Below, one piece after another: positions 27,019 through 60,200 of a stretch of 64,000 bases of DNA. Numbering within the stretch: the first letter of the stretch is position 1; the number at the start of each line of letters is the position of its first letter. Both the position numbers and the translations under genes were made by a program. The notes below the pieces were generated by a model that was not told the DNA's origin, did no database searches, and saw nothing but the letters and a program-made list of their open reading frames with translations. Source of the DNA: Psammoneis japonica (taxonomy: Eukaryota); the NCBI GenBank assembly GCA_008632985.1, contig QPGO01000016.1, positions 592,840 through 656,839 on the forward strand. Direction: 5' to 3'.

Positions 27019-27246
27019 ACAGACGAAACAACGAAACTGTGGTTTCTACTATGCCAAAGAGTATGAATGCATCTCACACAGAGACTAGATGATGATGATG
27101 ACTGTTGTAGAAATCAAAATGATTTGTAAATTTTAGTAGTAGAGAGACTATATCCTCAACACGCACACACACAATTGTCTAGTGTGGAACCGACGTATTT
27201 TTCTTGCCGTGCATTACAGTTTTACTGCCAAGAGAGGAAAAAAAGT

Positions 27247-34960: not shown

Positions 34961-36084
34961 GTTGTAGCTGATGGTCATGTTTGTGTTGGTGATCGTTTTC
35001 GATTTTGTGAGACTATTCGGTGTACTCTTCGCGATGATTATCGGCATGTTCTGAGAAAATCTTGGCTAGCTCAGCTAAAGATCTGCCACCAACACGTGCC
35101 ACGACAGCAGAATTCGGAATTCATTGACATGATTGTTCTCCACTTGCGTCAACCCATTTGTATTGGATCCAGCGTTGATTCTACGCCAAAAGTTGAGACG
35201 TGTCTTGAGTCCCAAATGCCGTCAATGAATGATGAGTCAGTCCCGTGCGTCAGTCTCAGTCACGGGAGCATCCTGAATCACGCCCATCGAGCGATCCAAC
35301 ACATTGCTTTGCTCTCTACTAGCTCATCAAATCGATGGGTGACAGCTACAAGCGCCGTGCTTGTAGTTGGATTGCATCAGAATCAGCTGCCAACATAGAA
35401 ACTGTTTGCACAGCGGTGGAAAATAAAGAAGGTCTTGCGTAAAGCTGGCTAGCAAAAAGTGATCATAGTGCGGAGTCTGGATGATGAATCTTTTTCAATG
35501 ATAACAAAACTGTAACAAGTTTCAAAACTATGACGCTCAAAGTTGACTAGACGATGAATGCATTAGCACCATTTACTGATACTCCTAGTAGATGGTCGCT
35601 GCTCGCTGCTCCTACCAAGAGCGAGACGGTGGTGAGCACGGGTGAGAGCCCCACCTCATCAGTTTCGTTCAAAGAATACCTTTCTCGCCAATATTTTTTA
35701 TGGTATGAGCTTCCATGAATAAATATGGAACAAAGAAAGCACGTGTGAAACAAGCAATCATTTCTTGCATTTGTCGTCGACGTCTTCTTGCTTTGAACGA
35801 GTCGAGTGGGCAAATGATCCGATGAAGGCCCAACCACCCCTTGGAAAGTTGTATTTGGATGGTAAATGAACAAAAAGGATACACACAGAGAAGTTATCGT
35901 CACTGTAGGTATTCAATTTGGTGATGCCAACGCATATGCGGCAACCGTCGACCCTTGTCCGTGTATCGCTCGGCACGCATACACATCAGGTACAAAGATG
36001 ACCGCCTAATTCCTGCTATGCTTCGGGGCTCCTCCTCGTCATTACGGGGTAGTGGCGATTCCACAGCACGACCGTTCCCTCTTT

Positions 36085-37167
36085 TTACACCAACCATTGA
36101 TGGAGGAATTCACTCAGGTCCCAAGCAATCAAATCAGGATATCCACCCAGTGGTCCCATGCACCGGTGGAGGGCAGTCGCACGATGAGGGCTCGCAAATA
36201 AATCCTCTGGATCGTTGCGATTGATGGAAGCGCCTTCCTCGCCCATTTCCTCGATAAACGTACGAGCTCGGAGACAGGACCGGTCATAGCGGCCAGTGTT
36301 GTCCTGCAAGGCTGTAACCTGTTGACAGTACGTGTCGAATAAATCCGAGTCGGTTGTGGCAAACATGGAGACCAACATGAATGGACCGTCATAGACACGA
36401 GTGACATTGAGAGGACCCGGTCCAGGTGGGTCCAAATCAAACTTCATTGTGTAGCTGTCGGGGAGAGTGGCTGTTTGTTCAATCATTCGATCCAAATAAA
36501 AGCTATCATTTCCCAGGCGGTTGAACATGCCCAGTAGAACAAAATCAAACTCTTTCAGCGGTTTTTGTATTTGTCGCTCCAACAAACTCTGCCACTGCAA
36601 GCTATATGCCACGTATGAGTTGGAAACAATGTATAGAGAGCTTTTATTGCGAAAACGAATGCGCACAGCCACTTGTTCGAAAAAACGAATATCCACAACC
36701 TCTGAATTTCCCATTTGACAGGCCAAGGCCCAACCTTGTTGGCGAGTGTGCGAATTCCCAAAAAACAAGAGGGTCTTGTTTGCGGGTATAACGCTGGCTC
36801 TTCGATGTCCCCATGCAGGTGGTTTCCTCTGGGCCACTTTAGCCACAAAATCATGCAGGCCTTGTCCGAAATCATTGTAGTTTGGTCCTCGACATTGATA
36901 CGAAATATTCGCTCCTTTGCTTTCGTCAAGAGGATCTCCCAAATAGGTTGAATTACAAAAGTTGAATGCATTATCCAGAAGCTTGCTGTCCGATGTTTCA
37001 GTAGGAGCTTCAATAGCAACTCGAGTCAGTCTTTGCTCATCATATACTGCATGTGTCTCAGTCTGACCATCGTGTTGCGCTCTGCTGTTGCTGGCGAAGA
37101 TCAACAATGACAAGATTGGAAGTAATTGGGACAACGCGAGGACACGACATGGCACCACTAGCATCAT
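36085..37167 (-). CDS. Secreted PC-esterase/TBL-like (SGNH-type) acyl esterase/transferase
   Basis: Signal-like N-terminus; LLFFGNSHTRQ (cf. GDS..R) and C-terminal HRCMG..GYPD (cf. HWCLPG.PD). Confidence 0.55.
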   Translation of the reverse strand: MMLVVPCRVLALSQLLPILSLLIFASNSRAQHDGQTETHAVYDEQRLTRVAIEAPTETSDSKLLDNAFNFCNSTYLGDPLDESKGANISYQCRGPNYNDFGQGLHDFVAKVAQRKPPAWGHRRASVIPANKTLLFFGNSHTRQQGWALACQMGNSEVVDIRFFEQVAVRIRFRNKSSLYIVSNSYVAYSLQWQSLLERQIQKPLKEFDFVLLGMFNRLGNDSFYLDRMIEQTATLPDSYTMKFDLDPPGPGPLNVTRVYDGPFMLVSMFATTDSDLFDTYCQQVTALQDNTGRYDRSCLRARTFIEEMGEEGASINRNDPEDLFASPHRATALHRCMGPLGGYPDLIAWDLSEFLHQWLV

Positions 37168-37374
37168 TGTGGTGTGTGATGCTTGCAGCGGAGGTGACCG
37201 GTGACGGGCGTCAAGCACCCGGTGTCATCGTGCTTTGTTCGCCGAAAAATAAAAGGATCGAACAAGGGCGCTCGCACAAATCAGTCATAGACGGTTGTGC
37301 TGCAAAAAATGAATGCATCGGGTGGAGATCGATCGATGGTTGCAAAAAGACTTGAGATGAAAAGATGCAAATAA

Positions 37375-37480
37375 CAGAGTTGTGAGAGAATCCACAGAGG
37401 AGCTGCCCACCAACCAGTGATGAACTGTTTGCTGATCAGTGAGGCCACCCCCCTCCTCTGATGGCAACCTCACATGTCCA
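37375..37480 (+). repeat. Dispersed ~100-bp repeat (also at ~37718, ~39562, ~48030; partial at ~42563)
   Basis: Consensus acagagttgtgagagaatccagaggagg...gtgaggcccc(tc)ctgatggcaacc. Confidence 0.75.
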
Positions 37481-40047
37481 ACGCACCTGGATGATGACAA
37501 ACAGACAAGCGCCGCCACCATGTGCCAAGATCTCATGCTCAGGCAGCTCTCAGATCACTCACATTCTTTGTTCCCCTCTGTGCACATGTGGCTCCCTCTT
37601 TTGTCTCTCTTTGTCAGCCTCCTGGCTGCTGTTGACACTGTGCAAGCAGCGGCAGCTGCAGTGTGCAAGATTGCCCAGCATCAGCCAAAAAACTTGGCAG
37701 AGAAAAGTTGCAGTCAACAGAGTTGTGCAAGAGAGGATCCAGAGAAGGCTTCCATTGACCAGCAGTCTTTGCTGGTTGGTGAGTGGTGAGGCCCCTCCTC
37801 TGATGGCAACCTCACACCACACCCAAGAACAACACACACACTTCTGAGTGCCACACACCATCAAGAAGCAGGTCTGACAAAGAGAGTGCTGGGCTTGTTG
37901 GAATTTTCCAACTGCAGACAGAAAGGTCCAAGGGTCTTTTTGGTGGGCACCAAGTGACACTGCTTTGAGAAACATGGCAGTTAGATGCAGGGCCAAACTC
38001 TTGCCCATGCAGCCCACTCTCACACCTTGTCTTTGGGAGAGAGGAGACTTGAAATTTGATGCTGGCAGAGATGCTGGCAGAGATCAAAATGTGACCCACA
38101 AACCAACAGCTGCAGGCCAAAGGCTCTGAAGGTCTTTGATGGGCACCAAGCATCACTTCAAAAACTGTGGCAGACAGACACAGGTTCAATCTCTTGCCCA
38201 TGAACTGGCCAAAAATTCATTTCCAACAAGGGCTTTGAAAGCATCCCTGCAACCAGCGCCATTCTGCCAATGCAAGTTGGCAACAGCGGCAGCAGCATGG
38301 AGCTGGTGAACATGACAGTTGCAGCCTGGTCAGAATGAAAACTGTCCCACTGGTTTGTGAGCTGAGCAAAGAAGTTGTTTTGCTTGATCCTCAGAGGATT
38401 CAAGCACACAAACCAGCAGCAAGCTCCTTCTTTTCATCTTGGAGAGGTTCAAATGATGCAAGAATGATGGCCAAATGCAAAAGAGCTTGTCCAAAGCTGT
38501 TGGGGTGTGGTGGACCACCCAACAGCATGACTCTGCTTCCAGCTGAGATCAAGTCTTGAAAATGCCATCTCAAAATCAAGGCACCCATGAGAACACAGCA
38601 ACGCTCATTTGAGACACCAGTGGAAAGCTCTTGATCTCAGCTTTTCAACAACGTGTGCAACACAAGCTGGCAATGGTGCTTCCTTGACAAGTTGGGAGTG
38701 ACAAGCAGCAGCAGCACCACCACCACCAACAACATCAAGTGCAAAGAAGAAATTTGTGTGCAGGCAAATCACTTCATGTTTTTTTCAGTTCTTCTTTGTC
38801 CACAACACAGCTTTGAAACTCTTTTCTTGCAGAAAACAAAACATCAAAAAACAACATGGCAGCAAAGCCGCCAAAGCTGGTGAAAGACATTGAGAATGAT
38901 GAAGCTGTGGAAAAGTTCCATGTGACTGGCTTTCAAGTCCTGCTGATTTGCCAATGTTCTGCAAGCATTGCACAGATGTGAACAAAAGGAAGCCAACAAA
39001 ATGCAAGTGTCCAAAGAAGCCAAGATTGCAGTTGACAGAGAGCAGCAATGTCCCCACCATCAAAATGCTGAGTGACCACACCTGGTGCACTTTGAAAGAC
39101 CAAGCTGTAAAAACACACTGCTTTTTCATCCTGGATCAAGCACCCCTGTTTTGTCAAGAAACACAATGGCAAAAATGATGCTGTTTTGTTTTGCCACTCT
39201 TGCCATGAACTGTCAATGAGGATGCAGGAAAACAGCAGAGAACAGTCTTGTCTGTTCCCATGCTCTCCTTGCATTTCTCAGCAACAACTTTGAGTTTTGG
39301 AGGAGAGCAAAGCTGGTGTGGTGTGCAGAGAGCAAAACATGCTTCCAGCCGTGCACATGATCTCAATGGGAGGGCAGGTCAATCTGCAAACAAGATGCTG
39401 GCACACACTCAAAATGCACACATCTGTGCACTCCTTTTTTGAGGAAACAAAAGAGCTTTCAAAGCCGTGCACAATGAGGCTATTTAGAGAAGGCTCCAGA
39501 ATCTGCTTGAGAGAGGAAGACAAGTTTGGCTTGCCCCCAACCATGAAAAAAGCATGTTGATCAACAGAGTTGTGAGAGAATCCAGAGGAGGCATCCACTG
39601 GCTGGTGGTGTCACTCTTTGATGATTGGTGAGGCCCCCCTGATGGCAACCCCCAGTGTGGCATGTCCAAAAGAGTGATTGTGCAGCACTTGCAAATGCTG
39701 CTGGCTGACAGCCCCCCAGCAGAGCCACAAACCCATTCTGTCATCAAATGGATGAGAGCAAGATGCGCACAGGCTGGCAGTGTCATGTGCTTGCTCAGCT
39801 CAGATCCTTCACTCTTGCTCCCCTTTGCTGGCATGCAGCTTGCTCTTTTCTGTTTTTGTTGGTGTGCAGGGCTCAAAGTGCAGAGCCACTTGGTTTGACA
39901 GAGGTGTGTGTGTGCTTGCAGGGGGGGGGGGAGCAAGGCGCATGCCACCACAGAGGCTGCTGCTCTGTGTGAGACAATGGCAATGCAAAAAAACCAGTGG
40001 CCAAGAGAGAAAAACAAGATTTGACAACAAAAACTTGTGGTCAACAG

Positions 40048-41980
40048 TGTTGGAACATTGGGGCCAGAGGTGGTTTTTGCAGGACAGAAAGTTGCAGTCA
40101 AAGATGCACTGACGACAGTGGACAATGTGGCAAGTTTGTGTTTGCAACTTGGGCTGAGTTGTGGATCTTGTGCTCACTTTTCAGCTTCTGTGCCAGGTGG
40201 GCATGGCAACAGCAGTCAACAGCAATGATCTCACAGTGAGTTTGAAGATGGTGAGACCAAATGCACAACAGCCTGTGAGCCACGAGGCTCCAACACAGAA
40301 ACTGAAAAGTTGTGGCATGACACTCACAGGAGTGGCACAATTTGATGGCTGGGAAGTCAAGAGGAGTCCAAAGTCAAAGGCTGGGAAGTCAAGAGGAATC
40401 ATTCAAAGATGAGGGCTGGGAAGTCCATGGGATTCCAAAGGTGTGACTCATTTTGGCTGATCACAGCAAACAAAATGGCTGGACAAAGGCAAAGAAACAA
40501 TCTCTGGAGGAACTTGCTGCCAAAGAAGCTGATGAGGGTCTGCTGAAAGAGGGCACAGCAAGGTTGTGTCAGGGTCAGTGAGACACAGTGTGCAACTGTT
40601 GGGGCAGGCCATGACACTCCAATGCAAAGTCCCAGAAAAGATGGGGGCAAGGACACAGCTGAGTGCAGAAGCATGAAAGATTTTTAAAAGAGTGGGTGTG
40701 TGATGCCATTGCCACAAGTTTGGATCACAGGCAGATGGTTGAACAGGAACTGCAATTGAGATTGGTGAGTGTGTCAGAAGAATGTTCAGGTTGGAGATGC
40801 AGGCATTGGTGTCTCTGAGGCAGGAGAGCATGCCAGAAAGAACTGGTGAATCCATTTGGAGTCACCACATCAGAGAAGGACAAGGCAACCTGGGGCAAGC
40901 AATGTGATCACTGTGTGAAACAGAATGTGATCTACAAGATGCAGAAGGCAAAGGCCTTCAATGCAATTGTGCGGCATTGTGCAAAGGCCATTCATCACAA
41001 GCTTGAAGGAGTGATGGAGTTTGTGAGAGTCACAAAGAAGTGAGATGTGGCAGCACTGCTGGATGTTCTCAAGCTGATCTTGTTTGGTGCAAATGAGAAG
41101 ACAACCCCGCATGTCCAGGTGGTCTCAAGGCTTGGAAGCAGTTGACACTCATCTGTCAAGATGAAGGAGAGGCACTTCAATGTCATTGCAGTTGGTTTGT
41201 GAGCATGGTGCAAATGGTGGAAATGTCCTGTGGCAGGATCATTGTAGAAGAAATTGCCAAGAAAGAAGGTGGGTTGAGCAAAAAAAAGGCTGATGAAACC
41301 CAGAATGTAGAAAGGAACAAGTCATCAGTGGTGGTGATGCTGATGGAAGGCACCAAGGACCGTTGGCATGCCTTGAAAAACCTGCATGAGCATGTCACAT
41401 TGGGGGCTGACATTTGTCCCATTTCAGCTGAGGAGGCACTGCAGGTGAGGGTGCAAGTTTTGCACAGAGAACAAGAAGAAGAAAAGATTGCATGCTGGAT
41501 GTGCAACAAGGTTGGACATGATCTGAGGAGGGGTTGTCCTGACAATGACCATTCGTTGGCACAGTCAGATGACGCGGACCATGGGAATTGGCAGAGCACC
41601 CAGTCAGCATGGTGTTGGGTGGCACAGTTTCCAAGTGTCATCCTTCCATGCTTGATGTGCATTGGGTCAACAAATTGACAGCTTGTGTGAAGGAGTGTGT
41701 GTTAAAGTGTCAGGGTTGGAGGCAGTTTTTGCAGGACAGACAGACAAAGTTGCACTGTAAAATGCGCTGACAATTGTGGACAACATGGCAAGTTTGTGTT
41801 CACAACCCAGGTTGAGATGTGGCACTGTGCTCACTTTTTAGCCTCTGCACCCAGTCAACATGGCAATGGTGGTTGACAGCAACAGCAATGAGTTTGCAAG
41901 CCACATGATGAGTTCAGAGATGGCAAAGCCAATCATGCGACAGTTGGCAAGCCATGAAGCTCCAGCAAACAGAGTTGAGT
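40048..41980 (+). mobile_element. Decayed Ty1/copia (CoDi-like) LTR retroelement remnant with gag relic
   Basis: Diverged direct repeats start TGTT at ~40048 and ~41700, the second preceded by PPT-like gaaggagtg. Between them are gag-like KLEG...DVAALL..LK.ILF and a zinc knuckle CWMCNKVGH...CP. Confidence 0.55.
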
Positions 41981-44433
41981 GAGCACGGCCCAGGAAAGTC
42001 ACCCCTGCTGGTCAGTGAATTTGCTCTTTTGTGCTGGTTGGTGAGCTCCCTTTCTCAATGGGGCAGCCAGTTCAAGCATCTCCAATGCGCAGCTCCTGCA
42101 TGTGCACACCACACACCAAAAGGGGCACACACCTGTGTGACACACAGATTGTAGATGAGAGCTGGGCTTGTCCAGATCCTTCAAACAGGCAGAGGTGACA
42201 AAAAAGAGCTGGGGACAAAGCATGAAGAGCAGCATGGTTGGGCAACTCAGGCAACACAGAGAGGCACAACCATCCAGCAAACGAAGCTGCGGCAGCTCCC
42301 GCGCCAAAACAAAGGTGCTTCTTTCCAGAAAGAAAAAAAAACAGATCGTGCAGCAACCTGTGAGAGCAGCTGGCTGTGCCACACAATGCTGGCTCTCTGA
42401 CACCAGGACCTGAAAGACCTGAACAAGGACTCACACAACAAATCAGCCACATGCAGAGGTTGGTTGTGCTGCCTGCTGGTCAGCAGGTGCATGCATGTGT
42501 GCACGCACACAAGATCTGCTCTGCAAGCAAAGCTGAAAAGAGGCATGACAAAAAGCTGCAATCAACAAAATTGTGAGAGAAGAGGAGGCCCAAAGGGAAG
42601 TGCCCAGCAACCAACAATGCTGGTCTGCTCTAACCAGAAAGCCTTGTCCAGCAAAGACAACCTCATGCATTTGTTGCAAACAACTTTTGCACATGCATTG
42701 CTGCCATGCATCAAATGGTGAGCAATGTCACACCTGCAAACAAAAGTGGTGTGCCCTGTCAGGCCCACTGAGCTCACAGAATCTTCACTCTTGTTCCCCA
42801 TTTTGGGCACAAAGTTCACTCTCATGTCTCCTGCTGTCTGTGTGGCTTGAAAAGCAAAGCTGCTCAGTTCTATGGAAATGCAAAGAGAACATGAAGGGAG
42901 CACGCCATGTGTGCTCCTTGCCTGCTCTTTCTCTGTCGGCAGCACAGCGGCACTCTTCACTCAGGACACAAGCTTCTGGTGGTGTGTGCCTTGCTGCTTG
43001 CATTGGTCTTCAATCTGTTGCAGTGCAAGAGGGATGAGACAGAGCCATTCTTTCATTTTGAGGAAACAAAAATGCACTGGCACTCACCTGTCTCAAGCAC
43101 CCCTGTCTAAGATGTGAGGCAAACCATCACCAGCTCACTGAGTTCTTTGAGCCTTGTTGAGGTGGTGTGCATCCTTCTTGCCCAGAGCTGAACATTTGAT
43201 GGTTGTTTGATGCTGCCATCACCAGCCTTTGCAACCAGCTTTGTGGTTGCATTGTCCCACTTGCTCTGCCTCCTTTTTGACTTCCTCATTGCACTCCCAC
43301 TCATGAGAGTGATGAGCTTTGCACTGGCAGACATGAGTTGTGGCAGTCAAGGAGACATGAGCTCTGAGCAAAATGTCTTCCTCTCATCAAGCATGGACCA
43401 GAGACACAACAAATGTGCCCCCAACATCATCATTGCCATTTTTCAGTCAAACAGCCTGCTGGCAAAGGCAAAAATGACTCCAGTTGGTGCCAGTGTGTCC
43501 AACTGCCAATTGTCTCCACTGCCATGGGGTGCATGGGATTGGCTGCTTGCTTTGCTTTCTTGCAGGCAATGAGACAGCACTCTCCAAAAGTGTGATGAAG
43601 AGCATTGCAGCAAAGAGCAAAAGGTCCGGGTGCAAGCCAAGGATGGCTTTGATGCAAGCTCAGTTGAGTGCCACATGTCTGCTGTCAAAGCAGTCATTGA
43701 AGCACATGGCGTTGTTGTCAGTGCCCACATTGAGCCAGTCAAACCAATTTTGAGAATCTTTGCCTGATGGTTTTTGCTTTTTCATGCACCTTGGGGTCTC
43801 AGCATGGCACAGATGGACATCATTTGCAAAATGGGAGCTGCCCTGACCACCTGTTTTTTCTCAAATGATTGCCCCAAAATTGCTGCACTTCTTTGTCAAT
43901 GCCTGGCTGCTGCATTGTTTTTTTTCATGGGTGCTTTGACACAAAGTCAACAGGAAGGGTGACAAAGTGCTTGGTCAATGCCCCACCAACTGGGGCTGCA
44001 CTGTGCTGCCCATTTGTCAACTCCTCACATTCCCTTCACTCTGCTGATTGTCCCCAGCTTGAGAAAAGCCTCTGCCTCTGTGACTTGCACACACTGGTCT
44101 TGATGCTCTCAACTGTGCTGAGGTGTGCTTGGGACAGATCCTGTGATGATGAGCAGCAAACACCCACACAAGGAGCAGCACATCTTCAGCTGGCTGCAGG
44201 TCAAGATTTTTGCTGCTGTCATTTTGTTGTTGTTGTTTTGTTGTTGTTGTTGTTCCAGAAGGTGAGCAATGCTGTTGTCATTGTTGGCCATGTCAACAGC
44301 ACTGGATGGTGTTTGTGTGTGTGTCAACACCTTTTGGTGCAGCACACTGATGAAATGTCATGCAGTGATTTCAATGTTTTCTTTTTGTGTTGTCTCTGCT
44401 GGAGCTAAAACATTTGTTGAATTTGCTCATCTT

Positions 44434-45020
44434 TCAAGTTGCAGGGCAGCAGCTTGACTTGCTGCTGTGTGGCCCCACCACAAGACAAACAAATGAGCCA
44501 TTTGTGCAACCCAGTTGATTTGAAAGACTCACAGTGAAAGCAGCATCAGCTTGCCTCAGCAATGCACTCAAAAGTGTTGTGGATGAACCTTGGGCTGGTG
44601 ATGGAGTTGGCACAGTTGCCAGGAAGATCGTTGGACACTTTGAAGGAGGGGACGTTGACGGCATGCTGGAGGGGGAAGTTGCTGGTGCTTGGTCAGTGCA
44701 CGGAGCCCAAAGGTGGAGATGCCAAAGCTGATGCTGACTTGTTGGCAGCACTGGAGTGGACACAGGTGCAACCAGTGCCGGAGGAAACATTGGTGACTTT
44801 GTGGCAGAAGTGGCACAGGCTCAGTTGTTGGTGAAAGCAAGGGTGCTTTGGATCTGATTTGGAACATGGGTGGGTGGCACATTTGTTGGTGAGTGGACTG
44901 GAGAGATGCATTTGCACAAGGAACAGTTGCAGACTTGCTGGTTGGGGCAATGGCAGTGACCCAGATGCAGGCACAGGCTCAGTTGTTGGCAGAAGTGTGG
45001 GTTCCATTTTGTGTTGCATC
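44434..45020 (-). pseudogene. Relic of a Pro/Thr/Ser mucin-like repeat protein
   Basis: PTTEPVP occurs twice, plus PSSMPSTSPPS and PTPSPA, split over several frames. Confidence 0.4.
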
Positions 45021-45499
45021 TGATGTTTGTGTGTGATTGGGTGCTTTCAATGGCTGGTGCAGGGAGGAAGAGATGCACACTTTTGCATGAGCTGGTTGGC
45101 TTGATCCAAGGACATGCAGATGGATGGTTTGATTTGGCATTGCTTGTCAGCACTGTTGTCAGCAAATGGCTCCAACCACTCAGGGAAAAGAGGGAGATGC
45201 ACTCAAAGGCAAAGGGGTCTCAGAAGGGGGGTGGTGGATGTCAAACTTTGTGCTCAGCAGCCCAGCTCATCAGAGGTCATTTTGTTTTGTTTGTCAGTGT
45301 GCAACAAAGCTTGGCATCATGCTGGGTCTCTCTGCACAGCCTCCATGAGGACAGCCTCCATGAGAACTCAGTCTGTGGCTTCTTGCCATCTCCATTGACA
45401 GACAGATAAAATGCACAGAAAATGCACACACTCCAACACAAAAAAATCCTCACCACAACAATGAACCACTGCTCTGCAGAGAGGCAAAGGCAATCAAGC

Positions 45500-47350
45500 C
45501 CATGGAACAATGAGATGTGCAGGGGAACTGTCTTTGTCAGTGGCATGAACAACAAAGCAGTTTTTCCATTGTTGGCAGTGCACAGAAATGGCTCTCATCT
45601 GTCTGGATCCATCTCCTCCTTGCACAGCAAACAGATGTGGGCAGCCTTTGGTCTTTGCACCACACACCAAGCAGGAATGACCCTGCAAAACACACAATTT
45701 ACAAGCACTCCATGCTTTGTCTTCCTGCACTGGCTTCTTGGCTGGGGTCAATTGAGCATCAATGTCGTGACCCATCGGCAGCCCATCTGCACCAAAAGGC
45801 ACCAAAAAATGGGTTTCAATGAGCTGCTTGCAGCAAGACTGGATGAGCCATGCCATGGCCATCATCAATCAACTCTTTTCTGCAAGAAACTCACAAAGTC
45901 CTTTTCACACTCTGCATGACCACCATTGCAGCCATGGCAGCATCTCTGTGTGCCAATGACAGCCATGCAAAAAGTTGAAAAATTCATGTGGTTGGACCAG
46001 TCCAGAGCGCCCAGATTCCATTTGATCTGGAGGTTGTCTTGCATGCTCCCATTGTGCTGATGAATCTTTCTGCAAGTGTTGCAGAGTGTCTCTGGTGCTT
46101 TGGTTTGGGGGGCAGCAAGCTCCAGCTGCTCAGGGGGTTAAAACTTGTGCTGACATTCTCAACTTGTGGGCAACAAGTCTTGGAGTGTGCTGCTTCTACA
46201 TTCAATGCTGGTGAGGTGTTGGTGGCAAGAAAATGCCTTCAATCATTGTCCATCTAGACAAAAACAAGTTTGTCAGCACTGCAACCATCTCACCCCATTT
46301 TGACAACTTCATTGCATTGCCCACACTCTGTGAGCTAAAAATTTTGCAGATGTGCCACAGGAAACTTTGGCATGGCTGTCTTGTTGACACCAATGACATG
46401 CAATCCAGCCAATGCACTCCATTTTTTCAATTGAACCAAACAATGCAAAGTGTGGACAATTGGCACATGTGATGCAATCTGTGCTGGCCAATGGTTGCAC
46501 AAGTTGTTTCAAAACTGCAGCTCCAAGCTGAGTTCTGCATCTCACATCTGTCCTCAGGCTTGCAGTCAATTGCTGCATGCTGTGGGATGCCAGTGTTGAT
46601 CCAGCACCCACCAAGACCTTGTGCCACTTTGACATTGACTCATCCACCCAAACATCAGTCGACGGTGAAAAGTTGGTTGTCAGGTGTTGGTTGAGCACTG
46701 CCACCAAGTTGTCAACCAATTTCCAACAGCACTCTTGTTCAGAAGACATTCCTTCCAGTTGCTCATCTGGCTGATCACTGGACCAAACTGAAGCACGCAA
46801 AACATCAAATCTGTCTGCCCTTGTCCCAAATGCCAGAGCCAAACAACACTTTGCTGTTTGCTGGGATGCACGTTGCCCACAGATCTGACCTGGCATTGAA
46901 CCTGAACTTGGCTGACAGAGCGCACTGATCCAAAAAAACTTCAACAACTCTCAGAGATTTCTTGTGTTGGCTGCTTGACTCTTCCTCAGCTGCCTGTTGG
47001 CAAGCACAACACTTGCACTGAGATGGTTGGGTGAAAACACCACAAAAAATGTCCAACCAAGAAAGACACCCTGCACAGTTGCTGCCATTTTGCCCCAGCC
47101 ATTCTTCCACTTCAGGAGTCTTCACTGTTCATTGTCCAGCTGGCACTAGATCAAGAGCACCCCATGCACACATCCTGCTTTTGCAAGCGCCATGATGCTC
47201 CATGTGCAGCTTCGGCAGGTTGCTCCCTTGTTGTGGTTGCAGGAGCGGCGCTGGTGCTGGCGATGCTGGTGCTTGTCATTGCCCACATCAGAAGGAGCAA
47301 CAGCAAGAGGAGAAGCTGTTGATGGAGTGTTGCTGGAGGAGGGAAGGTTG
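45500..47350 (-). mobile_element. Decayed piggyBac-like (DDE_Tnp_1_7-type) transposase
   Basis: WKLVDN...NFSPS..VWVDESMSKW(H)-GLGGCWINTGIPQHAAIDCKPE..CEMQN and VLKQLVQP match the protist piggyBac-like pattern (DESMSRWYG.GG.WIN.GLP.YV..DRKPE) with Y>H, V>A and R>C changes. Confidence 0.75.
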
Positions 47351-48129
47351 GCATTGGCCACAAAATCTGTTGGATTGTTGGCAGTCATCACCACTGTGGT
47401 GGCAGCAGCCTGTGTTGGTTGTAGAGCATGTGGGTCACCATGGCTGCATCATGCTGCAGCTGCTGAATTCCTTCCTTTTTATGGTGCTGCCACCAAGCTC
47501 ATGCACTGCAGTGACAAACCATGCACACCTTCTGTTGGCGGGGTTGTTTGGCAGTGTTCTCAGCTCTGCTTGAATGATGATCCCCCACCAATCAGCTTCA
47601 TGTTCTTGTTGGAGCTGCACCTTTGGGTGCACTCAGCCTTGCTTGTCACATGCATGGCTTTGGCATGGACTTGGGCACCAGACAATCTGACACCTTAGAT
47701 CTGGTGCCATTGTTTGAGAGGATGCCTCACAATGGTTGTCAAAGAGCAATGGTGATCACATTGCCCCACTCATCTCAAAACAGCAATCAACTTTTTGTTG
47801 TCACTGACTGAGCACAAATTCATTGCCTCCAATTGCAAAGGTCCATTGAAGCCATTGGATTGGCACTGTGGCAGCCAACTCTTCTTCCGACGAGTTTAAG
47901 AGCATGCAAAACAATGTGATGATGCTGTGCGACGTGTGCTTTTGTGTTTAGCGAAACAGCTGGGGGGTCGAAAATCTACCTCAATTGAGGTCCTTGACAG
48001 ACCAGACACTTGACAAAAGGTTGCAAACTACAGAATTGTGAGAGGATCCAGAGGAGGCACCCAATGACTGGTGATGTTGCTCTTTTTTTTCCCCCGGATT
48101 TGTGAGCCCCCCCACAACAAACCAACCCG

Positions 48130-49452
48130 CCACGTCTGGTGCACACTTGGACACGCCACACACATCTTCGGTTTCGTAAAAGAGGCCAAATGTGCGCTTT
48201 GCTAAACACACATTCTTTGCGCACTGCTGCCGCCACTCTGCTGCTCCTCGTGACAGCATCTTCTCTTCCACGGCCTTGTCACACATCAGCCACAGCATGG
48301 TGCCTCTTGCGGCTCCATCCACCGCATTGTCGCATCATTTTGGTGGAGACCAAGCTCGTCAAGATCAACCAGCCATTCAAGCCGTTTGTTGACAGTGGGT
48401 TTGCCGCCAGCTGCATCCACGGCCTCTCGACAACTTGGGTTTTCATTCATCTGGCATAGGGACACCCAGTGCATTCCGCACAGTTCAGAACCTGGGCACT
48501 TCATCTTGTAGAGAGCTTGGGCGCAGTCCACAATGAGGCAGACCTGAAGGATGTTGGCAACCCTCCTGTCCCTGAGCGTGTCGATGACATCGCGCTCTGT
48601 CACTGAGGGTGGATCATCCACCTTCCATCAATTGCAGAGCATGTGGAGAAGCTCTAGACAGGCTTTGCGTGCCGTGTTCTGTGCCTTGGCTGCAACATCA
48701 TCATCTCGGCGCATGCGCTTTGCCCAATCTTCGGCCCAAACCACAGGATCGGTCCCGCCCTGAGCAGAGTGAAGGGTTTCAAGCATTTCCTGAAAGCCGT
48801 TTGAATCGCACATGGCGACAAACTCTTGAATTTCCTGACATGATCTGATCCTTTCCAGGAGATCATTCTTGGATCTATTCCTTTCTTCATGGATTGCATT
48901 CCGCAAGGCAGGGGTGCGCTTCATGTTGGTTGACGACAGTTCCTTTCGACAGAAAGGACAGTTGCTGTTCACATTGAGCCAATTCGTCAACGAAGACTCA
49001 TCGCAAACCATGCCACAAGCTGGATCAGGGCAATCAGGCAACACAGGAATGTCAACAAGCTCGAGTGAAATGGGGCAAAAGCACCATCTTGCAACATCCT
49101 CGCCCGTTTGATCCCTTCGCCCCAAAGCACCGAGCAGCTGCCTGACAAGTGTTTGGTCTTCAGACTCTCATTCATCTCGCATGCTCTCCAAAATGGCTCT
49201 AGCTTCTTCGTGCTCATCGATCGCAGTCAGTTCTCGAAGCCTTGTTCTTCTAAGTTCCTCCTCAAGCATCACAAAGTCTTCATTTGCAGCATCGCTCAGC
49301 CTTTGACTGTTGACAGTTGCAGCATCGCTCAGCCTGTTGGCAGTTTGTGCGAAACCAACGCAACTGAGGTGGAAGTGAATGATGCTTCTGCTTTTGGATG
49401 TCGACTTTGAGAAGCCTTTGGCTTGGGATGCAGCAGGGGCCCTGGCGAACAT
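48130..49452 (-). pseudogene. U-box/RING E3-ligase-like pseudogene
   Basis: CPISLEL..IPV...CG...D..SL.NWL..NS.CPFCR. The frame is interrupted by in-frame TGA at ~49168 and ~48628, compatible with CGA>TGA. Confidence 0.65.
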
Positions 49453-49481
49453 GGCTCATGCCCACAGGGCGATCCAGGAAA

Positions 49482-50581
49482 CTTCGAAGACTTCGAATGA
49501 TTCCATGTTCCATGACATTTCTGCAAATTATTCTACGTGCAGAGCTCGTAGGTTGTTGGTACTTTATAAACAAGGGGCAATAGATAAAAGTTCGAACAAA
49601 TATGTTGTGTGTTCGAAGCTTTCGAACATTGTTCGAAGTGTTCGAATTTTTGTCGCAAACATATTGCCCTCCAAAGATTTTGATTTGAGTCACTTATTGT
49701 TCGAACTTTTCATATTGCCCTTTTGGTCACTTCGAACTTATTCGAACAAAGTTCGAACTCATTCGAACAAGTTCGAAGTGTTCGAACAAGTTGAATTTTA
49801 ATTATTTATTTAGTCATTTATATATCATTACGAATTGACAACCACCGATTTTTGGCACGCGACACCACCACGATGACACGTTCCGTCGAACGAGTTCGGG
49901 CCCACCCGGAACAGTTACCAAGCCATTTGGGTACAGCTATGTCAATGAGGTACTTGCGGATCATATATGTCTCATTGGACTGGTAATTCTTCGTGGTTGA
50001 CAAATGAACGACGGCAAAGGATTCACGTGTTGTTTTGTCGTGCTTTGGCGTAGAAAACCTGCGCAGGCCTGCTCTGAGCCACAAGCGCACGTGGTGAGCT
50101 TGCAGCACATCTCGCAGCTGCCTGCACTTGTCGCTTTGATTGTACATGCCGCATCTCATCATCTCATTGATGCCGGTAGATGCTCGAGACTCGAGCAGCA
50201 GAAGAGAGCACAAAACAACAACGTGAGACATCACACCTGCCGGCACCGCATCGCGCGTGTGCCACCAGCAGCACCGGCACCTGCACCTGCGCACATCATT
50301 CGGCTGTGGATGTCATCGTGACATCATCATTCATCTCCCTGCCTTGCTTTTATTTGTGAATTATAAACTTCGAAAGTGTTCGAAGTGCTTCGAAGTGTTC
50401 GAAGCATTCGAACAACTTCGAACACTTCGAACTTTCTTTGGGGCAGCACAAAGGGCAATGGGCCCTAGAGAAAGAAATTTTACAATGTTCGAAGCTTTTG
50501 TCCATCCTGCACGAGGTCCACGTAGAGACATGTTGACAGGAATTGGGAATCTCTCAACAAATGTTTTTCGAAACTTCGAAG
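49482..50581. repeat. Two clusters of TTCGAA palindromic repeats (~24 copies, often spaced 9-11 bp)
   Basis: About 14 copies in 49482-49790 and about 10 in 50368-50581, with an AT-rich tract at 49793-49842. Confidence 0.9.
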
Positions 50582-53500
50582 TTTCCTGGATCGCCCAGCC
50601 TTTTCAATGACCTTTTTGACATTTCCCATTTTGTTCTTCATGTGGTTCAACATGCCTTCGACGTGTCCCTCCTGAGTGGTAGAGCCTTCGGGGATTGTTC
50701 TCAGAAGTTCTGCGAGATTTCGCATCTCTCGCCCAGCTGCTCGAAAACAGTTCTTCCAGCTTCGGCTGCATCATCGCACACTGTTGCAATGCCGTTTGCA
50801 ATGGTGACGCATGCGCCAACGATGGCCAACACAGTTGCCACTTCCATGGTGGTGCTTTTGAAACGCCGAAGAAATGCCAGGAAGATGATGAAGATGCAGA
50901 TGGACTGCCGGCAGATGCGGCTCGCATCGGCTTTTTTTTTTTACAGTTCAGTTGCTTCACTCTAGAATCCTGCGTGATTTTCTCATTTTTCGACTGAAAT
51001 CAGTGATTTTCCACAGACAATGAAAATCTCCGCCCGCTCACTTTCTGCGTGACCAGGTGCAGCCCAAATTTGCGCAGCTTCAGCAAAGTTTTTACAGACT
51101 TCTCGGAAAAACGTCAAAAAGCTCGTCTGCGCCGTTTCGCAAAAAAAAAAAGAAAATCGTCGAAGACACGTGCAACATCACCTCACAAACGAGACAAAAC
51201 AGCACTTCATCTGCACCGCTGCTGTGAACAACGACACCATCATAAGTCCGCAACCACCATCCACACTTGTGATGTGGGATCCTTCTTTTGAGGAAATCAG
51301 CTTCACACTCACGAAGAAAAGTGTGGATTTTTGTGCACTTTGTTGACATGAAAACACTGGCATGCAAACAAATCGATTGCCTTGTTGTCAGCCAGTGCAC
51401 CGCTTCACTTGTCATTTGCACTAAACCTGTTTTTTGTTGTGTGGAAAGTCCACACACAAGTGCTCAAAGTGCCTCCAAAGAAAAAAAAGCAAGTGCACTG
51501 GCAATCTGACTGAAGCAAAGAGGGGCAGAGTGTGAAGAGAACAAGAAAGTGAGAGGCAGCTGCTTTCAAGAAACGCGAGGCCGGGCCCACATCTTGTTGG
51601 ACAAGCAAAACCAGTTGGCAACATTCCTTTTCACATGACAATGTGATTGACTTGCCTGTGTCCTCTGTTTGCAGCTGGCATTTGACTGACTGGGTGTGTC
51701 ACAAAAGGAAGAGGGCAAGACACAAACATCTCAAACCTCTCGGCACAGCCAGGGCTTGTGTGCCATTCTGCACTTGTGCACACTGGGCTTCTTTGACAAC
51801 AAAGAGCCAAGCTCAAATTTCTCACATGCATTTGTTGCAAAGGCCACTTCTTTTTGCTGGCCACTGACTCAGCACAGTTTGACAAAGTTGCTGACATTGT
51901 CAGAGAAAGTGTTCTCTTTGTCCAAGACAGTTTGTGCTGGCACAAGCATGCGACCACAAAACAGGAAGATCTGAGCTCCAACCCACCGGCAAGTGAGCTG
52001 CAAGGATGGGGGAGGAAAGATTGGGTGTCAGGTGTGCAGATTGTGCACTGCTGACATGACCAGCAGTGTGGCAGAGCTGAGCAGCACACAGCCAACAAAG
52101 ACACTCCTGCCAAGTTCAAAGCAAGGCTGCAAAAAGTTTCACAGCACACAGTGCAAGTCTCTCCTCACTCAGAGAAGCAGTGTGCACTTGTTGCCAAAAC
52201 AAGGCAAGCTCCAGCTGAGAGTTGTTTTCTTGCTGGTGTGCCAAACATTGAGCTGTGCACTCACTGAAGCTGATGCAGCCCAAGAGCCCCCCCTCCTCTC
52301 ACATGGAGGGCAACAGGTGTGCCCAAACCCCTGGGGTGAATCTGCACAGGAAACATTGGTTTCAGCATTTTCTCCAGCAGCATTGTTTTGGCACACTTGG
52401 TGCTGTGTGTCACCTGAAAGAGAGAGGCCACACCAACAAGCCAGAAAGAGCCACACATTGAAGAGAACTTTGCACTGGGTGCATTGTGTGCTTGACAAAG
52501 TGCCCTTGATTGGCACTGAAAAGCAGCCATCTGTGGCAATGCAAAGCATCTCATGGCTTGTGGATGAGCTGTCCTTCTGATTTTTGATGCTGTCACAATG
52601 AGTGCCTCCAAGTCATTGTTGTTGACACTGTTTTTGTGCTTGCTCATTTGATCTTGCTCTTTTTTGTTCTCACTCTTGTTGTTCTCACTTTTGTTGCTCT
52701 TGTTGTTCTTTTTGTTGTTGTTCTCAATGTGATTCTCAATGTTGTTCTTGTTGAAAGAATTGTTGTCAACCCACCAAGTCCCTGACAATGTGACACTCTG
52801 CCTGTGCACAAAGTTCACTTCTGAGTGAGCCAACCTGCAGTCAACTTCCGATGAAAACAAAGAAAAGATCCAGCACTGTCAACAGGGCATGGCAGAGCCT
52901 TTTTCAATGCAATGCCAGAGGATTTGTTGACGCGCCTCTGCTTTCAAGCTGACAAAAAGTGCACAAATCTGTGCCTTTCTTCACAAATTTGGAGCTGTCT
53001 TTCATGAACAACTCTTTGTGAGACTGGGCAGCAGAAGCAGAGTTGAGATGATGCCTGTTGTTAACAGCAGCAGTTTGTTTTATGTGTTGTGGTGTGATTT
53101 GTTGCAGTTTGGCACTCGACAACTGCTTTCTTGTGAAACATCACTGCTGGGCTTTTGGGCATTTTGTCAAAAGTCTGCAGCCTCACAGAAAGAAGTTGGC
53201 AATTTCTTTTCAAAAGATCCCAGTCAAAACAACATGGACAATGGTGTTTTGCCAATTTCAAAATGCTGAAGTGTCTGAGGCACTTTGCAGTGCACTCTCA
53301 ATGGAGCATCTTGCATCAAGGCATGAGACACAAGACCAAGACATGATGCATTCTGTCTTAGAGACAAAATCATGTTCCAAAAACAGAAAAGTGAAGTGGA
53401 GGCAAAAGCAGTTGGAGAGCAAAGAGCAGGTGGTGCGGAGCTCCAAGAAAAAGAAAGCTGCTGAAAAAGATGGGCTCCTTTGGACAGGGATGTGAGTGCA

Positions 53501-54339
53501 GCACAATGGTGACCTGCAAGCTTTGCAACACAGCTGGCAACATTGTCACATGTTTGCACTTAAAATGTGAAAGTTTGAGAGCTTGACAGTGCATGGGTGT
53601 GCCTCTCATTCTCATTTGCAACAAGCAGCTAGGAAAGCACATGCCCTGAACTGAGTTTGTGCTTGCAGCGGCTCTCACACAACATGGCAACACAATCTGG
53701 CTTTCACTCTTTTGCCCAAACAGGCAACATCTGCTGATGACAGTGACAACCAAACGACCAGAGATGCAGGCAGAAAACAAGAGTTTGCTCATCTTGCAAA
53801 CATTGGTGCATTTTCAGAGTGGCTGGAAACCAGTCATGTTTGTTTTCATTTTTCTGCAGCCACAAAACTTGTTGTGTTCTTGGGTGCTGGTTTTAAACTC
53901 TAACTGACACGGCCACTCCCACTGTCACTGCAAGACACTTGGTTGATTTTTGCACAGGAGGCTGCTGCAAGCTGCAACAAGATTGCTCCCACCAACCCTT
54001 GAGACATTGAATCCTTGTTTTGTTTGCATGACACAAGAACACCTCCCAGCAATCATGAGACACACAATCAGACAAGAGCAGCACATTGCTCCGAGGTGCA
54101 CGGCACAGCTGATGACACATTTGGCATCACCCCTCACTGATGCAATGTGCCACACTCCTCCACCACAACAACCTTTTGCTGGATGGCACTTGAATGGAGC
54201 AGCCTCTGGGGAGGACTCTCAACACAACCTGCAGCTGCCTGCTTCCTTTTGTTCATCATCCCCAGGGTGTCAACATTCTGCGCATGGGAAACGAGGGGGG
54301 TGTCACTCTTCTTTTGAACAAAGAGAGACAAAAACACAG

Positions 54340-55200
54340 CTAAGGATGGAAGCTGGAAGCTGGCAACAACTCCACTGTATCCCTCAACACGGAAGAAGGT
54401 GAGGCAGGGCAAGAGAAAAAGGCGAGAAAGGCCTTGTGCTCCTCCTCTCACCCCACAACCCTCACAATCTTGCCTCGTTTTTTGGCACGTTCAAGCACAT
54501 ATTCCACCGCCCATGGGCGGCTTGGAAGAAGTCTTTTGTCTTTTTGCATCTGACAACTCTTTGGTTTACATGTCCACAGACGCCAGCAACAGAATCAATG
54601 GGAATGCGTGTACAAGACCGCAGCTCATCTCGACAGAAATCATTGGCAGCTGCAGCTAGCGTTTTTCGCATTCCACGGTCTGAAGACTTCTGCTGCTGTC
54701 TGTGGTATTGCCGATTGCCGACCCTGTATCAGAAATTAGTTTCGTGGTACGAAAGGTGTTTATCTAACACAACGAATCAAAGAAGAATAGATCAATTGGC
54801 CATGGAAAGAAAAAGAAAACTAATTCAAGGAGTAATGACTGTAATTCAACGGAAGGTTCCCATTTGAGGTTGACAACTTGCTGGTGCGGATTGCATACCA
54901 TCGTTTCTGAAAAGACGCAGCAATGCAACTGACTTTCCTCAGCAGGCACATTTTGTGCATGGATGTGACCTCTACCGGTAGAGTCGAATCCAATTCTCTT
55001 AACTCTTTGCCCTTTTATACCTGCGTTCCGCAGCTGCGCACTATGCGAGACGATCCAGCATCCATGCCATACATTACAAATTGTGGGCACTCGTATTGCT
55101 ATACGTGCTTATGGAATGCCGTCTTGGGTAATCCGCGTTTCAAATGCCGAGAATTTGGACAAGTGGTGCGGAGTAGCAACCCTTTTGTCCCAATACGCAC
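54340..55200 (+). pseudogene. PEX2-like peroxin fragment (Pex2/Pex12 region plus RING)
   Basis: QTPATESMGM-like N-region and C-terminal PASMPYITNCGHSYCYTCL...FKC RING. Stops and frameshifts present and the first CxxC is missing. Confidence 0.5.
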
Positions 55201-55424
55201 ACCAACAGAGTATAGGAAAAGGGTCATGATCAATAGAGCGGAAAAGATACATACGTCGAGACAATTGTTTTGTTCGACGTGGCTCAGCCCTGTCGGATAT
55301 ATCACAAAAAGTCTGTTTACGCTAACCCACAGCGTGTGATGTCTACGGTACCAGCAGTGCTTCAAAATTATGGGATAAGAAAGGATGAAACAGTGTCTTC
55401 GAACCGCGAGGTCCAGCCGCCCCT

Positions 55425-57279: not shown

Positions 57280-60200
57280 TTTTGCTAGTGAGCATGCTCG
57301 TTGCATTTAAAACTCGCATTTGCGCTTCATCTGCATGCTGGCAGTCTAATTCATGCATGGATCAGATGGCACCAAAACAATGCGCGATGCACGATGCACA
57401 TTCAGGAAAGCGACAAAGCCTCGGAGCATGCCGTCTCTTGTTTTTTTGCGTCATTGGGCCAACACTTCCAGCTTGCAAACTCTTGCACAAAAGCTCCAGA
57501 GTGTGCACAACAATGTTGCAACAGTGACACTAATGAACATCAAATTAAAATGGGTGTCATGGGCATGGAGGACCTCATCAACAAGATCTGTGACAGTGCA
57601 CTGGTTCCCAGCAACCAAGAACCAAGTGCAAACCCACACCAAGGACAAGGCAAGGAATGGAGCCACCTGGAAGTCAACAAATGGGGCGATCAAAGAGCAA
57701 ACAATGGCGTGGCTGCAGCAGTTCTCCTCACAAAAAAGAATGGCTGCAATTGAGAGACCCCAAGCCTGGCAGTCGGTGCCAACAATCTGAAATCATGCCG
57801 CCCAAGGTGGGCAGCAGCACACCACAAAGAGCGTGCGACACATTTCTCTCTGAAGCATTGAATGACATTTTCTCTGGCCTGGTTGAAGTTGCTTGCCACC
57901 TGCTGTGTTGAAATGGTGCTTGCTGGCTGACATGAGCAAAAGAGCATGTGGCACACATTTGTTCTGGCATCAAGCTGCTCTTCTTCTTCTTCTTCTGCAT
58001 GGAAAGCTCTCTCTGGTTGCTTTGACCTCACTCAAATGTTTTGTTGTTTGCCGCTTGCTCTTCTGCTCCCTCAATGATTTCTTCTTTGCCACCATGTTCT
58101 TGTTGCTTCTTGTTGTGTGTTGCTCCCTTGGCAAAGAACATTTTTTTGCTTCACATCTGTTTGAGCAATGCAATCTTCTTGTTGCTCGTTGCTTGCTTGT
58201 CATTTTGGATTTTTCAGGCATCAAGCTGCCACCCACCCCACCCACCCATGTCTCTCCACCACAAGGTTGACTTGCCAACACTGGCCAGCAACTCTGACAA
58301 ATTTGTCCACCATGTGAAGCTTGCCAGACACACAAAGCACATTGTCAATGTCATTGTTGGAGTGATTTTTGGGGTGCTTGATTTGATTAGTTGCCACTCT
58401 GTTGTGATGCAAAAATCCAGCTGCAACAGAGTGTGGGGCAGATGTGGGCAGGAAACTGTCACCTGCTGCCCACTCTTTGGGTTTTCACCTTCCTTGCTCA
58501 CAAAGCACCTCTGTGTGTGAGTGATGAAGATGACCAGATCAAAGAAAACAAGCAAGACAAGCAAACAAAACAAATGAGCAGCACAACTCAATCCTGCCAT
58601 TTCCACTCACCTGTGTGCAATGTTGCAGCACATTGTTTCTCATCCTTGGCTGTTTTTGTTAACTTGTCTGAGTTTCAAAAAATGAAGAAAGTGTGAAAGA
58701 ATCAGCTCACTGAATGCTGTGCAAGCTGCCTGCTCCCATGCCACACTTCTGACCTCCTGTTGCCATTCCCATGGCTTTTCTTTGTCAATGTGCACAGAGT
58801 TCTGGGTTTTGTCAGTGCCTTCCTGAAATGTTGTCATTGTTTGTGTGCTGCTTGGATGCATCCTGTTTTTTTGTGTTGTTTTTGTTTGTGGTGGTGGTGT
58901 GCCTTCTTTTTGCCGCTGTGCCAAGCCACCAAGCCAGTCAGCCTGGTGATCAGTGCTTGCATCATTTTGCAGATGGTCAATGTTTTGAAAAGCTTTTTGT
59001 CATGCTCATCTTGAAGTTTTAAGCTGTTTGAATCAACTCAATCAAATGAATCATTTTGTTGGTCTTCACCGCCAATGCATTTTGGTTGTGAGCCCTTGTT
59101 TGTTTGGCAGCTGGGTGTTGTCAAACATTGCTTCAATTGGGTTCAGTGCATCTGTTTTCAAAGAAGATTGATGTCTCAGTTTTTTTCATCTCAAGGCAAC
59201 CAGCTCTTGTCAAGAATGAAATTTTCACATCATTTCTGGTCCACACAGTTTGTTTGTTTGTGTCTGTGGGCCTGCTGTTGCAGCTGATCTTTGCAACCCC
59301 CATCATGGTTGAAACTTGCAGGCTTGAGGTCAGAAGAGGTTGTGGAGTTGGTTGTGCAGGTGGTCATGGATGGAGAGAGGAAGCTGGTTGAGCACAAGGT
59401 TGACTTGGTCAGCACAGCAGCAGTGCTGGATGTGTGCCTGCAAATGGCCAGATCAGCAGCCCCAGCCCCCAGAGACACAGGGGCACTGCAGCTGCAGCAC
59501 CTCCTGCCAATGTTCCCCCTCCCTGATGAGTGGTTGCCCACACCAGTGCAGTCATGTGCTGTTGAGGCCCCATGTTGCCTTGTCACCAGCAGGTCAGTGC
59601 AGACATCAACTTCCTAACTTCAGAGTGAAAAGACCCCATCGTGGCACACCAACCAACCTGACAACTGCAAGCTGTGAGGTTCCCAACAGCAGCAGAGCCA
59701 AGTTTCCAAAAATTGCAATGTGCAAGTGCCCCTGACAGCACCAATGAACCTGATGAGACAGCAAGCTGACGGCATTGGTGGTGTTTGGTGGACCCCAGGT
59801 GAGACTTTGAGAGCTGCGGTTGGGCACTGCAAGGTTGATCTTGGGGTGTTGTGGCCCCATGTCACCTTGTCCCCAACACAGCAACAGGTGACAGACTTGA
59901 CTTTCTCAACTCTGGAGTGCAAGGATCCCATGACAGTGGGTGTGGGTCAGAATTGTGAAATTGAGCTTTGTCAGTTGCTTGCACGTTGTGCAACAGAGTG
60001 CAATGTGCAAGCATGGGCCAAAACAAAATCACAAAATCAAGTCATGTCAGCCCTGACAACTTGGCACCCCAAAAAGTGTTTGCAACACATTTGTTGTCAA
60101 GCAACCACTTTAAAGTGGTGTTGAATTAAGTGAAAATTTGCCCTTGCTGCAGTCTGGGTTGATGTTGGAATTTGCCAAACTGCAGTTCAATGATGTGGTT

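Follow-up and report, generated by a model that had tools for sequence, protein, structure and literature searches.

The DNA analysed here is a 64,000-base stretch of Psammoneis japonica contig QPGO01000016.1 (the window, numbered from its first letter), about half of which has lost nearly all of its TpA dinucleotides. Dinucleotide counts per 1-kb bin and a two-state segmentation by TpA density both gave five TpA-depleted blocks with a total of 31,636 bases (49% of the window); blocks 3 and 4 form a single depleted domain of ~16.3 kb, split by an element with terminal inverted repeats (TIRs). The normal-composition DNA encodes DnaJ, ankyrin, FG-GAP and TIC20 plus EF-hand genes (Pfam). Wherever a relative of the TIC20 protein has a named organism, that organism is a diatom, the best relative being 63% identical, and judged by this protein the host is a diatom, not Bigelowiella. 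The blocks, the TIR element and the open reading frames (ORFs) next to the core are listed below with their observed/expected (o/e) ratios:

1-4246: block 1; TA o/e 0.06, CG o/e 0.40 (segmentation and border profile).
14666-20141: block 2; TA o/e 0.09, CG o/e 0.64 (segmentation).
37160-49528: block 3, the core of the finding; TA o/e 0.05, CG o/e 0.18 (segmentation).
49467-50596: TIR element of 1,130 bases, non-autonomous-looking, with perfect 23-base TIRs.
50524-54566 by segmentation, 50597-54566 beyond the TIR element: block 4; TA o/e 0.06, CG o/e 0.30.
57348-62849: block 5; TA o/e 0.04, CG o/e 0.20 (segmentation).
33836-35065, minus strand: TIC20 plus EF-hand gene (Pfam), normal dinucleotides.
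36085-37224, minus strand: unnamed ORF adjoining block 3, normal dinucleotides.

The blocks contain 119 TpA steps versus 1,269 in the other 32.4 kb; TpA o/e is 0.04-0.09 inside them and 0.49-0.65 outside, with host genes at ~0.55, and all seven of the borders examined switch within one 250-base bin. An earlier note on this DNA had described a near-TpA-free half of the window with sharp borders, and the segmentation reproduces its coordinates almost exactly. CpG is also low, with an o/e of 0.18-0.64 per block that falls to 0.00-0.15 in the lowest 1-kb bins, those at 38-47 and 58-61 kb. TpG stands at 1.73 and CpA at 1.76, an excess of ~1.75-fold, and the mass balance nearly closes: the excess of TG+CA (0.0663 of dinucleotides) is close to the deficit of TA+CG (0.0706). 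If the blocks are at equilibrium, the frequencies of TA (0.0038) and TG+CA (0.218) would imply, by our own arithmetic, a forward rate that exceeds the back rate by a factor of at least ~57. GC-biased gene conversion was rejected as a cause: it is not TpA-specific, and it is opposite in direction to CpG loss. Beside block 2, over an FG-GAP-repeat ORF (20142-22000), TpA o/e is only moderately low (0.17-0.46) and CpG is normal; this could be a partial spread of the process or mere codon usage.

Such a composition could in principle be written by the sequencing itself, through base-calling errors that modified DNA causes in a long-read assembly. One public sample has runs that cover the window, and the contigs of its run X1 (1.5-11.4 kb, 31-mer depth 60-70) reproduce the TpA-free blocks: there are no differing letters over 36000-40076, nine over 41725-49494, and none over 50570-53261 and 53234-54743. 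Kilobase contigs at this depth need accurate reads, so a base-calling artefact is rejected; the same signature also recurs in independent metagenome assemblies. What speaks for an artefact is that X1 possibly comes from the assembly's own sample and that five of the nine differences, all within 7.8 kb, involve CpG (CpG versus TpG/CpA); the nine differences nevertheless show that the window was not merely copied from X1, and we regard an artefact as barely credible. Of the nine, one affects two neighbouring letters (46867-46868), TG in one version and CA in the other, the signature of two lineages that converted one ancestral step differently, and the nine as a whole may be allelic or subculture variation.

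Depth in X1 is that of single-copy DNA (60-94) across most of the blocks, and summed depth rises to 1150-1414 at 40.0-42.0 kb and to 1061-1645 at 49.3-50.7 kb. In gene-flanking DNA at 54700-55400, X1 contains a second version with ~5% divergence and a depth split of ~98 of 168, which may represent either another haplotype or a paralog.

Three ORFs in the blocks, two of them protein relics, are as follows:

1-1191, plus strand: ATPase relic, open for 397 aa, no tyrosine; STAND/AAA_16 ATPase region of kinase-ATPase-sensor proteins.
18294-19493, minus strand: transposase-like relic, open for 400 aa; from a family of ~1000-aa proteins.
48631-49167, minus strand, inside block 3: U-box-like ORF, no tyrosine; Pfam PF04564, E 1e-5.

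A scan of 135 block ORFs of at least 100 aa against Pfam found no transposase family, the U-box being the sole match. For the ATPase relic there are 34 homologs, of which the best is 29% identical (E 1.1e-24) and those with names are bacterial; its first match in Atlas scores 0.98, and the similarity lies in the region after AAA_16. The transposase-like relic has 553 homologs (best E 1.7e-77), with a single named relative, from the diatom Cylindrotheca closterium. Its Atlas lead (0.94) is to DUF6729/Mutator-like proteins and is not backed by Pfam, which gave no match in the seven relatives scanned. Of the family labels previously given to the relics, piggyBac thus finds no support, with no transposase match among the 135 ORFs, and KDZ is replaced by the DUF6729/Mutator-like lead.

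The transposase-like relic records the direction of change. Aligned to 110 homologs, it has 171 conserved columns and keeps 103 of them. Among its 16 conserved tyrosine columns, four are kept, four now read His (CAY), four Cys (TGY) and four another residue; His or Cys therefore stands in 8/12 changed tyrosine columns versus 2/56 other changed columns (Fisher p 2.7e-6). The conserved Val254 is now Ala (GCA), and Arg40 and Arg312 are now Gln (CAG, CAA) and Arg272 Cys (TGT), as CpG decay predicts. The ATPase relic keeps none of its seven conserved tyrosines, which have become three Phe, two Leu, one Thr and one Cys. The changes from Tyr to Cys/His and from Val to Ala (GTA>GCA) that the earlier note had read in the relics are thus borne out in the transposase-like relic but not in the ATPase relic, which we consider uninformative given homologs that are bacterial and only 29% identical.

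The tyrosine codons also bear on a different explanation, namely that no directed mutation took place and the composition is intrinsic, the elements having been poor in TpA and CpG from the outset or having lost TpA to selection. Long ORFs do persist in the blocks (1-1191 and 18294-19493), and the largely conservative change from Tyr to Phe in the ATPase relic would suit this explanation. The His and Cys residues of the transposase-like relic do not; non-coding stretches are equally depleted; and open frames are expected in any case, since conversion of TA to TG or CA cannot make a stop codon and long open frames therefore persist in ruined DNA.

Ordinary self-BLAST finds almost no repeats inside the blocks. 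When the sequence is recoded into purines and pyrimidines, an alphabet immune to transitions, self-BLAST uncovers old repeats, including several shorter relics common to the blocks. Homology-based transposon annotation thus fails in regions of this kind, and the purine/pyrimidine alphabet recovers the repeats:

40047-41989, plus strand: repeat element of ~1.9 kb with terminal direct repeats of ~270-290 bases (arms 40047-40316 and 41699-41989).
14792-14914, plus strand: fragment with similarity to the terminal repeats at 40-42 kb (91% over 115 bases, purine/pyrimidine alphabet).
51215-51438 and 52856-53074: diverged inverted repeat pair (82% over 226 bases, purine/pyrimidine alphabet).
43028-43185: 160-base relic repeat with a second copy in block 5.
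16275-18379, block 2: tandem repeat with a 732-base unit, ~2.9 copies, 97-98% identical.

We compared nine old repeat pairs inside the blocks step by step. At pyrimidine-purine (Y-R) steps, 62/264 are double transitions, every one of them a CA step aligned with a TG step, compared with 27/268, 28/326 and 15/268 at the other step types (p 2.6e-10); independent conversion, in each copy, of a shared ancestral TA or CG predicts exactly this discordance, and an intrinsic composition does not. Between its two arms, the 40-42 kb element shows 75 transitions and 14 transversions, with 18 CA/TG steps; the fragment at 14792-14914 differs from the terminal repeat by 32 transitions, with 8 CA/TG steps; and the inverted pair differs by 61 transitions, with 14 CA/TG steps.

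Related copies from a microbial-mat metagenome appear to catch the process part-way. A locus search with a five-sequence family alignment gave 35 copies of the relic's family, with TA o/e of 0.10-0.79 and CG o/e of 0.40-0.90; four of the 150 listed homologs, all four metagenomic, combine 0-0.3% Tyr with 9-13% Cys+His. Over the 35 copies and the window relic, a higher TA o/e goes with a higher Tyr% (rho 0.79, p 9e-9), a lower Cys+His% (rho -0.79) and a better score per residue against the family profile (rho 0.49, p 0.003). Two close pairs give the direction: between L002 and L005 (96.9% identical over 2,586 bases), L002 has TA where L005 has TG/CA at 41/80 differences, with 1 reversed, and between L023 and L022, 48/83 differences are TA versus TG/CA, with 0 reversed, whereas CpG-type differences number only 7 and 10. 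As the TA-rich copies match the background in TA (0.5-0.7) without exceeding it, and fit the family profile better, TA-rich is the unmutated state. This graded series, in which the TA-poor copies fit the profile worse, also stands against an intrinsic composition, which we consider most improbable.

The share of TA sites converted per pair is 17-70%, and conversion lies in tracts: only at alignment positions 21-455 in L028, and only at 617-1368 in L014. Such reciprocal tracts would reflect either genuine hypermutation in patches or assemblies in which mutated and unmutated copies were fused into chimeras. Heavily mutated metagenome copies retain 0-1 stops, as expected of a conversion that makes none; among CpG changes, the genetic code allows only CGA>TGA to create a stop. 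Within one 90% protein cluster, P0255 and P0308 comprise a 286-aa member without tyrosine and a 708-aa member with 2.4% overall, a contrast that suggests a mutation border inside that gene.

The metagenome pairs, with each event scored on the strand of the mutated A, show a strong dependence on the base after A: conversion is 55/128 before C, 33/115 before T, 7/116 before A and 6/89 before G (p 8.6e-14), and no clear effect is seen for the base one position further on. The window follows this T-A-Y rule independently of the metagenome copies. Survival of its TpA relative to normal density is 1.5% in R-TA-Y, which is favourable on both strands, 8.4% where one strand is favourable, and 31% in Y-TA-R; the surviving TpA thus sits in the disfavoured context.

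This context bears on two further explanations. In the first, TpA in silent DNA would be symmetrically N6-methylated, and the modified adenine deaminated or miscopied to G, much as 5-methylcytosine (5mC) is at CpG. The palindromic target with equal strands (TG 3,469 versus CA 3,418 in the blocks) and the regional loss that resembles a chromatin mark are consistent with such a process; the T-A-Y dependence, however, is one-sided and non-palindromic and better suits an enzyme that reads one strand, so that we consider a modified adenine improbable. In the second, element transcripts would undergo ADAR-like A-to-I editing that is fixed via reverse transcription. ADAR acts on dsRNA and favours G after the edited A, whereas here C and T are favoured (6/89 before G versus 55/128 before C); the strands are equally affected; and among the DNA affected are a DNA-transposase relic, ORFs that resemble pseudogenes, and whole intergenic domains whose borders look chromatin-like. 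A 2026 preprint on Bigelowiella natans (Mettrop et al., bioRxiv 10.64898/2026.01.13.699255) notes that a 5' U preference resembles ADAR, which is the point in favour of editing, and yet reports that its own mutations arose in place in single-copy inserts; editing of RNA is, in our judgement, hardly conceivable as the source.

CpG loss is a separate and slower process than TpA loss. CpG has reached its normal level at three block edges where TpA is still missing, so that the TpA footprint reaches ~250 bases further; block 2 is uncoupled, with a TA o/e of 0.09 and a CG o/e of 0.64; and metagenome copy L001 has a TA o/e of 0.13 with a CG o/e of 0.90. In the 732-base tandem, copies 1 and 2 differ at 15 positions, of which 12 are CpG versus TpG/CpA and one is TpA versus CpA. 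Diatom transposons are reported to be CpG-methylated by DNMT5 (PMC9998398), and from the sequence pattern the CpG loss would be methylation-type (5mC) decay. Such decay accounts for the CpG>TpG/CpA half of the pattern; it cannot remove TpA, its footprint is narrower, and it is slower and separable. The link to methylated chromatin that the earlier note had suggested for the TpA process is accordingly only indirect.

The overlap of the two footprints also invites an explanation by error-prone repair, in which the repair of deaminated 5mC would recruit a Pol-eta-like polymerase that writes A>G at WA. Pol eta makes A>G changes at WA, that is at both TpA and ApA, as is known from somatic hypermutation, and the loss of TpA and CpG does occupy the same blocks. 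ApA, however, stays flat (0.0835 of dinucleotides in the blocks versus 0.0854 outside) while TpA falls ten-fold; the TpA footprint extends beyond that of CpG at the three borders; and the metagenome pairs hold 41-48 TpA events versus 7-10 of CpG type, with L001 low in TpA at a CG o/e of 0.90. Repair of this type, which the earlier note had offered as one possible source, is a poor fit and in our view unlikely.

The TIR element is informative about targeting. It carries >15 TTCGAA-containing subterminal repeats, and the segment 49529-50523 within it is normal (TA o/e 0.49, CG o/e 1.20), an island in the depleted domain; its summed depth of 1061-1645 is roughly 17-27 times single-copy. The element is a high-copy, younger insertion into a depleted block. 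As it is high-copy yet unmutated, copy number alone is no trigger; alternatively, the process has been inactive since the element inserted. The earlier proposal that the process is repeat-targeted is not upheld, since most depleted DNA has single-copy depth and the high-depth TIR repeat is untouched. Under a duplication trigger, old copies in the blocks would have diverged past recognition, which limits the argument from single-copy depth.

Other features of the normal-composition DNA deserve mention. Three collinear inverted-repeat arms of 66-114 bases, 82-92% identical, lie at 27377-27907 and 29082-29571 and enclose ~1.2 kb of DNA of normal composition; the structure may be a foldback or TIR element spared mutation. 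At 24684-27088 the DNA is GC-rich (0.55-0.60), with overlapping long ORFs in several frames and no Pfam match to them, a strong GC/AT skew, normal TpA, and ~120-base internal repeats at 26035-26521. Contigs of a further run, X2, cover gene regions only, though the TIR element is also touched.

Taken together, the Tyr>His/Cys changes, the CA/TG discordance and the metagenome pairs show a context-specific mutator that has converted TpA to TpG/CpA in silent transposon and pseudogene DNA and for which neither 5mC decay nor fungal repeat-induced point mutation (RIP) accounts; the distinct mutator postulated in the earlier note therefore stands. The blocks are, with good probability, old silent transposon or foreign-looking DNA near-saturated by such a TpA mutator, plus the slower CpG process. 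The A of TpA is changed to G on either strand, yielding TpG or CpA; the mutator strongly prefers T-A-pyrimidine and acts over regional tracts that end sharply at neighbouring genes; and a second, slower removal of CpG follows a slightly narrower footprint. Tyrosine codons (TAY), which are the preferred motif itself, would become Cys or His codons, so that proteins are ruined by missense and not by truncation.

Several points weigh against this reading. The ATPase relic lacks the TpA signature, and ~32/75 transitions between the terminal repeats of the 40-42 kb element fall outside Y-R steps, so that ordinary divergence contributes too. The high-copy TIR element is unmutated while most depleted DNA sits at single-copy depth, and the process may be extinct, episodic or not repeat-triggered. 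The evidence in this organism is a historical footprint and not de novo mutation; the association with transposons rests on one window; the X1 sample may be identical with the assembly sample; and the metagenome organism shares the element family only.

As to the enzyme, a TadA/ADAT2-type DNA adenine deaminase recruited to silenced chromatin is a plausible, if tentative, candidate. Evolved TadA acts on DNA, and natural TadA and ADAT2 target U33-A34 of tRNA. Wild-type TadA is reported to depend on UACG and evolved TadA-8e on UA (PMC12296453); this type of enzyme is favoured here because T-A-C, the best motif, fits the UACG dependence of TadA. The likeness is that U or T is needed before the A, with T-A-C, then T-A-T, far above T-A-R in our data. 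The differences are that natural ADATs are tRNA enzymes, that here an ADAT-type enzyme is only a candidate, and that position +2 has no clear effect. Candidate gene families comprise ADAT2/3 paralogs, the deaminase-SAM-Tudor proteins of stramenopiles (PMC3239186) and DNMT4 (PMC9998398).

Fungal RIP resembles the process seen here in that both hypermutate DNA itself, regionally and by transitions only, both ruin selfish DNA, and both leave their mark on dinucleotide frequencies. RIP, however, changes CpA to TpA and so creates TpA and stops, whereas here TpA is removed, the change is toward GC, and no stops arise; RIP moreover needs duplicated sequence, whereas here a high-copy element is spared and DNA at single-copy depth is saturated, although old copies of the latter would no longer be recognisable.

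The closest known system is that of B. natans, and the suggestion that the process might be undescribed does not survive the preprint, which reports the same TpA>TpG/CpA hypermutation. In B. natans lines, 231/302 new mutations fell in two viral inserts; 230/231 insert mutations were A>G or T>C, the GC-biased ones all at TpA; the mutation rate, measured de novo, was up about 1000-fold; 124 TpA-depleted clusters were found, transposon domains among them; and an ADAT2-like deaminase was proposed (10.64898/2026.01.13.699255). In the literature searched, with supplements and most subscription journals outside the search, we came across nothing on the loss of TpA from repeats of diatoms. Directed A-to-G genomic hypermutation is thus so far known from one preprint on one species, and a saturated diatom footprint, along with part-mutated metagenome copies, suggests that the process is not a one-species curiosity.

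Our work provides new handles on the process: a T-A-C/T motif that any candidate enzyme must reproduce, a demonstrated separability from CpG methylation decay, and naturally occurring pairs, one copy mutated and the other not, in which tract structure can be measured. More speculatively still than the choice of enzyme, a chromatin-directed, T-A-Y-specific adenine deaminase might be a widespread defence of marine protists, spanning Rhizaria and stramenopiles, independent of methylation and detectable by its footprint, in environmental DNA as well. If this is true, the defence would erase tyrosine codons and TA-containing signals without making stops, and it could be found in any assembly.

In B. 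natans, as far as the preprint describes it, and in the present window alike, A changes to G at TpA on either strand, the change is regional and spares host genes, the footprint is low TpA with high CpA+TpG, and transposon-type domains lie in the depleted DNA. The two cases differ in several respects: B. natans is a chlorarachniophyte (Rhizaria), whereas the present host is a diatom (stramenopile); its evidence is de novo laboratory mutation, whereas ours is a footprint alone; its inserts derive from giant viruses, whereas the depletion here covers half of the 64-kb window and involves transposon relics; and the TpA o/e of its nucleocytoplasmic large DNA virus (NCLDV) insert is 0.45 versus 0.04-0.09 here. 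The main text of the preprint mentions CpG 0 times, and its Results and Discussion name no diatoms and give no preference as to the base that follows A, whereas both CpG loss and such a preference are seen here. In conclusion, the present window is not the first description of TpA>TpG/CpA hypermutation; it adds a second lineage, far more saturated than the first, and two hosts this distant make a comparative search for the enzyme feasible.

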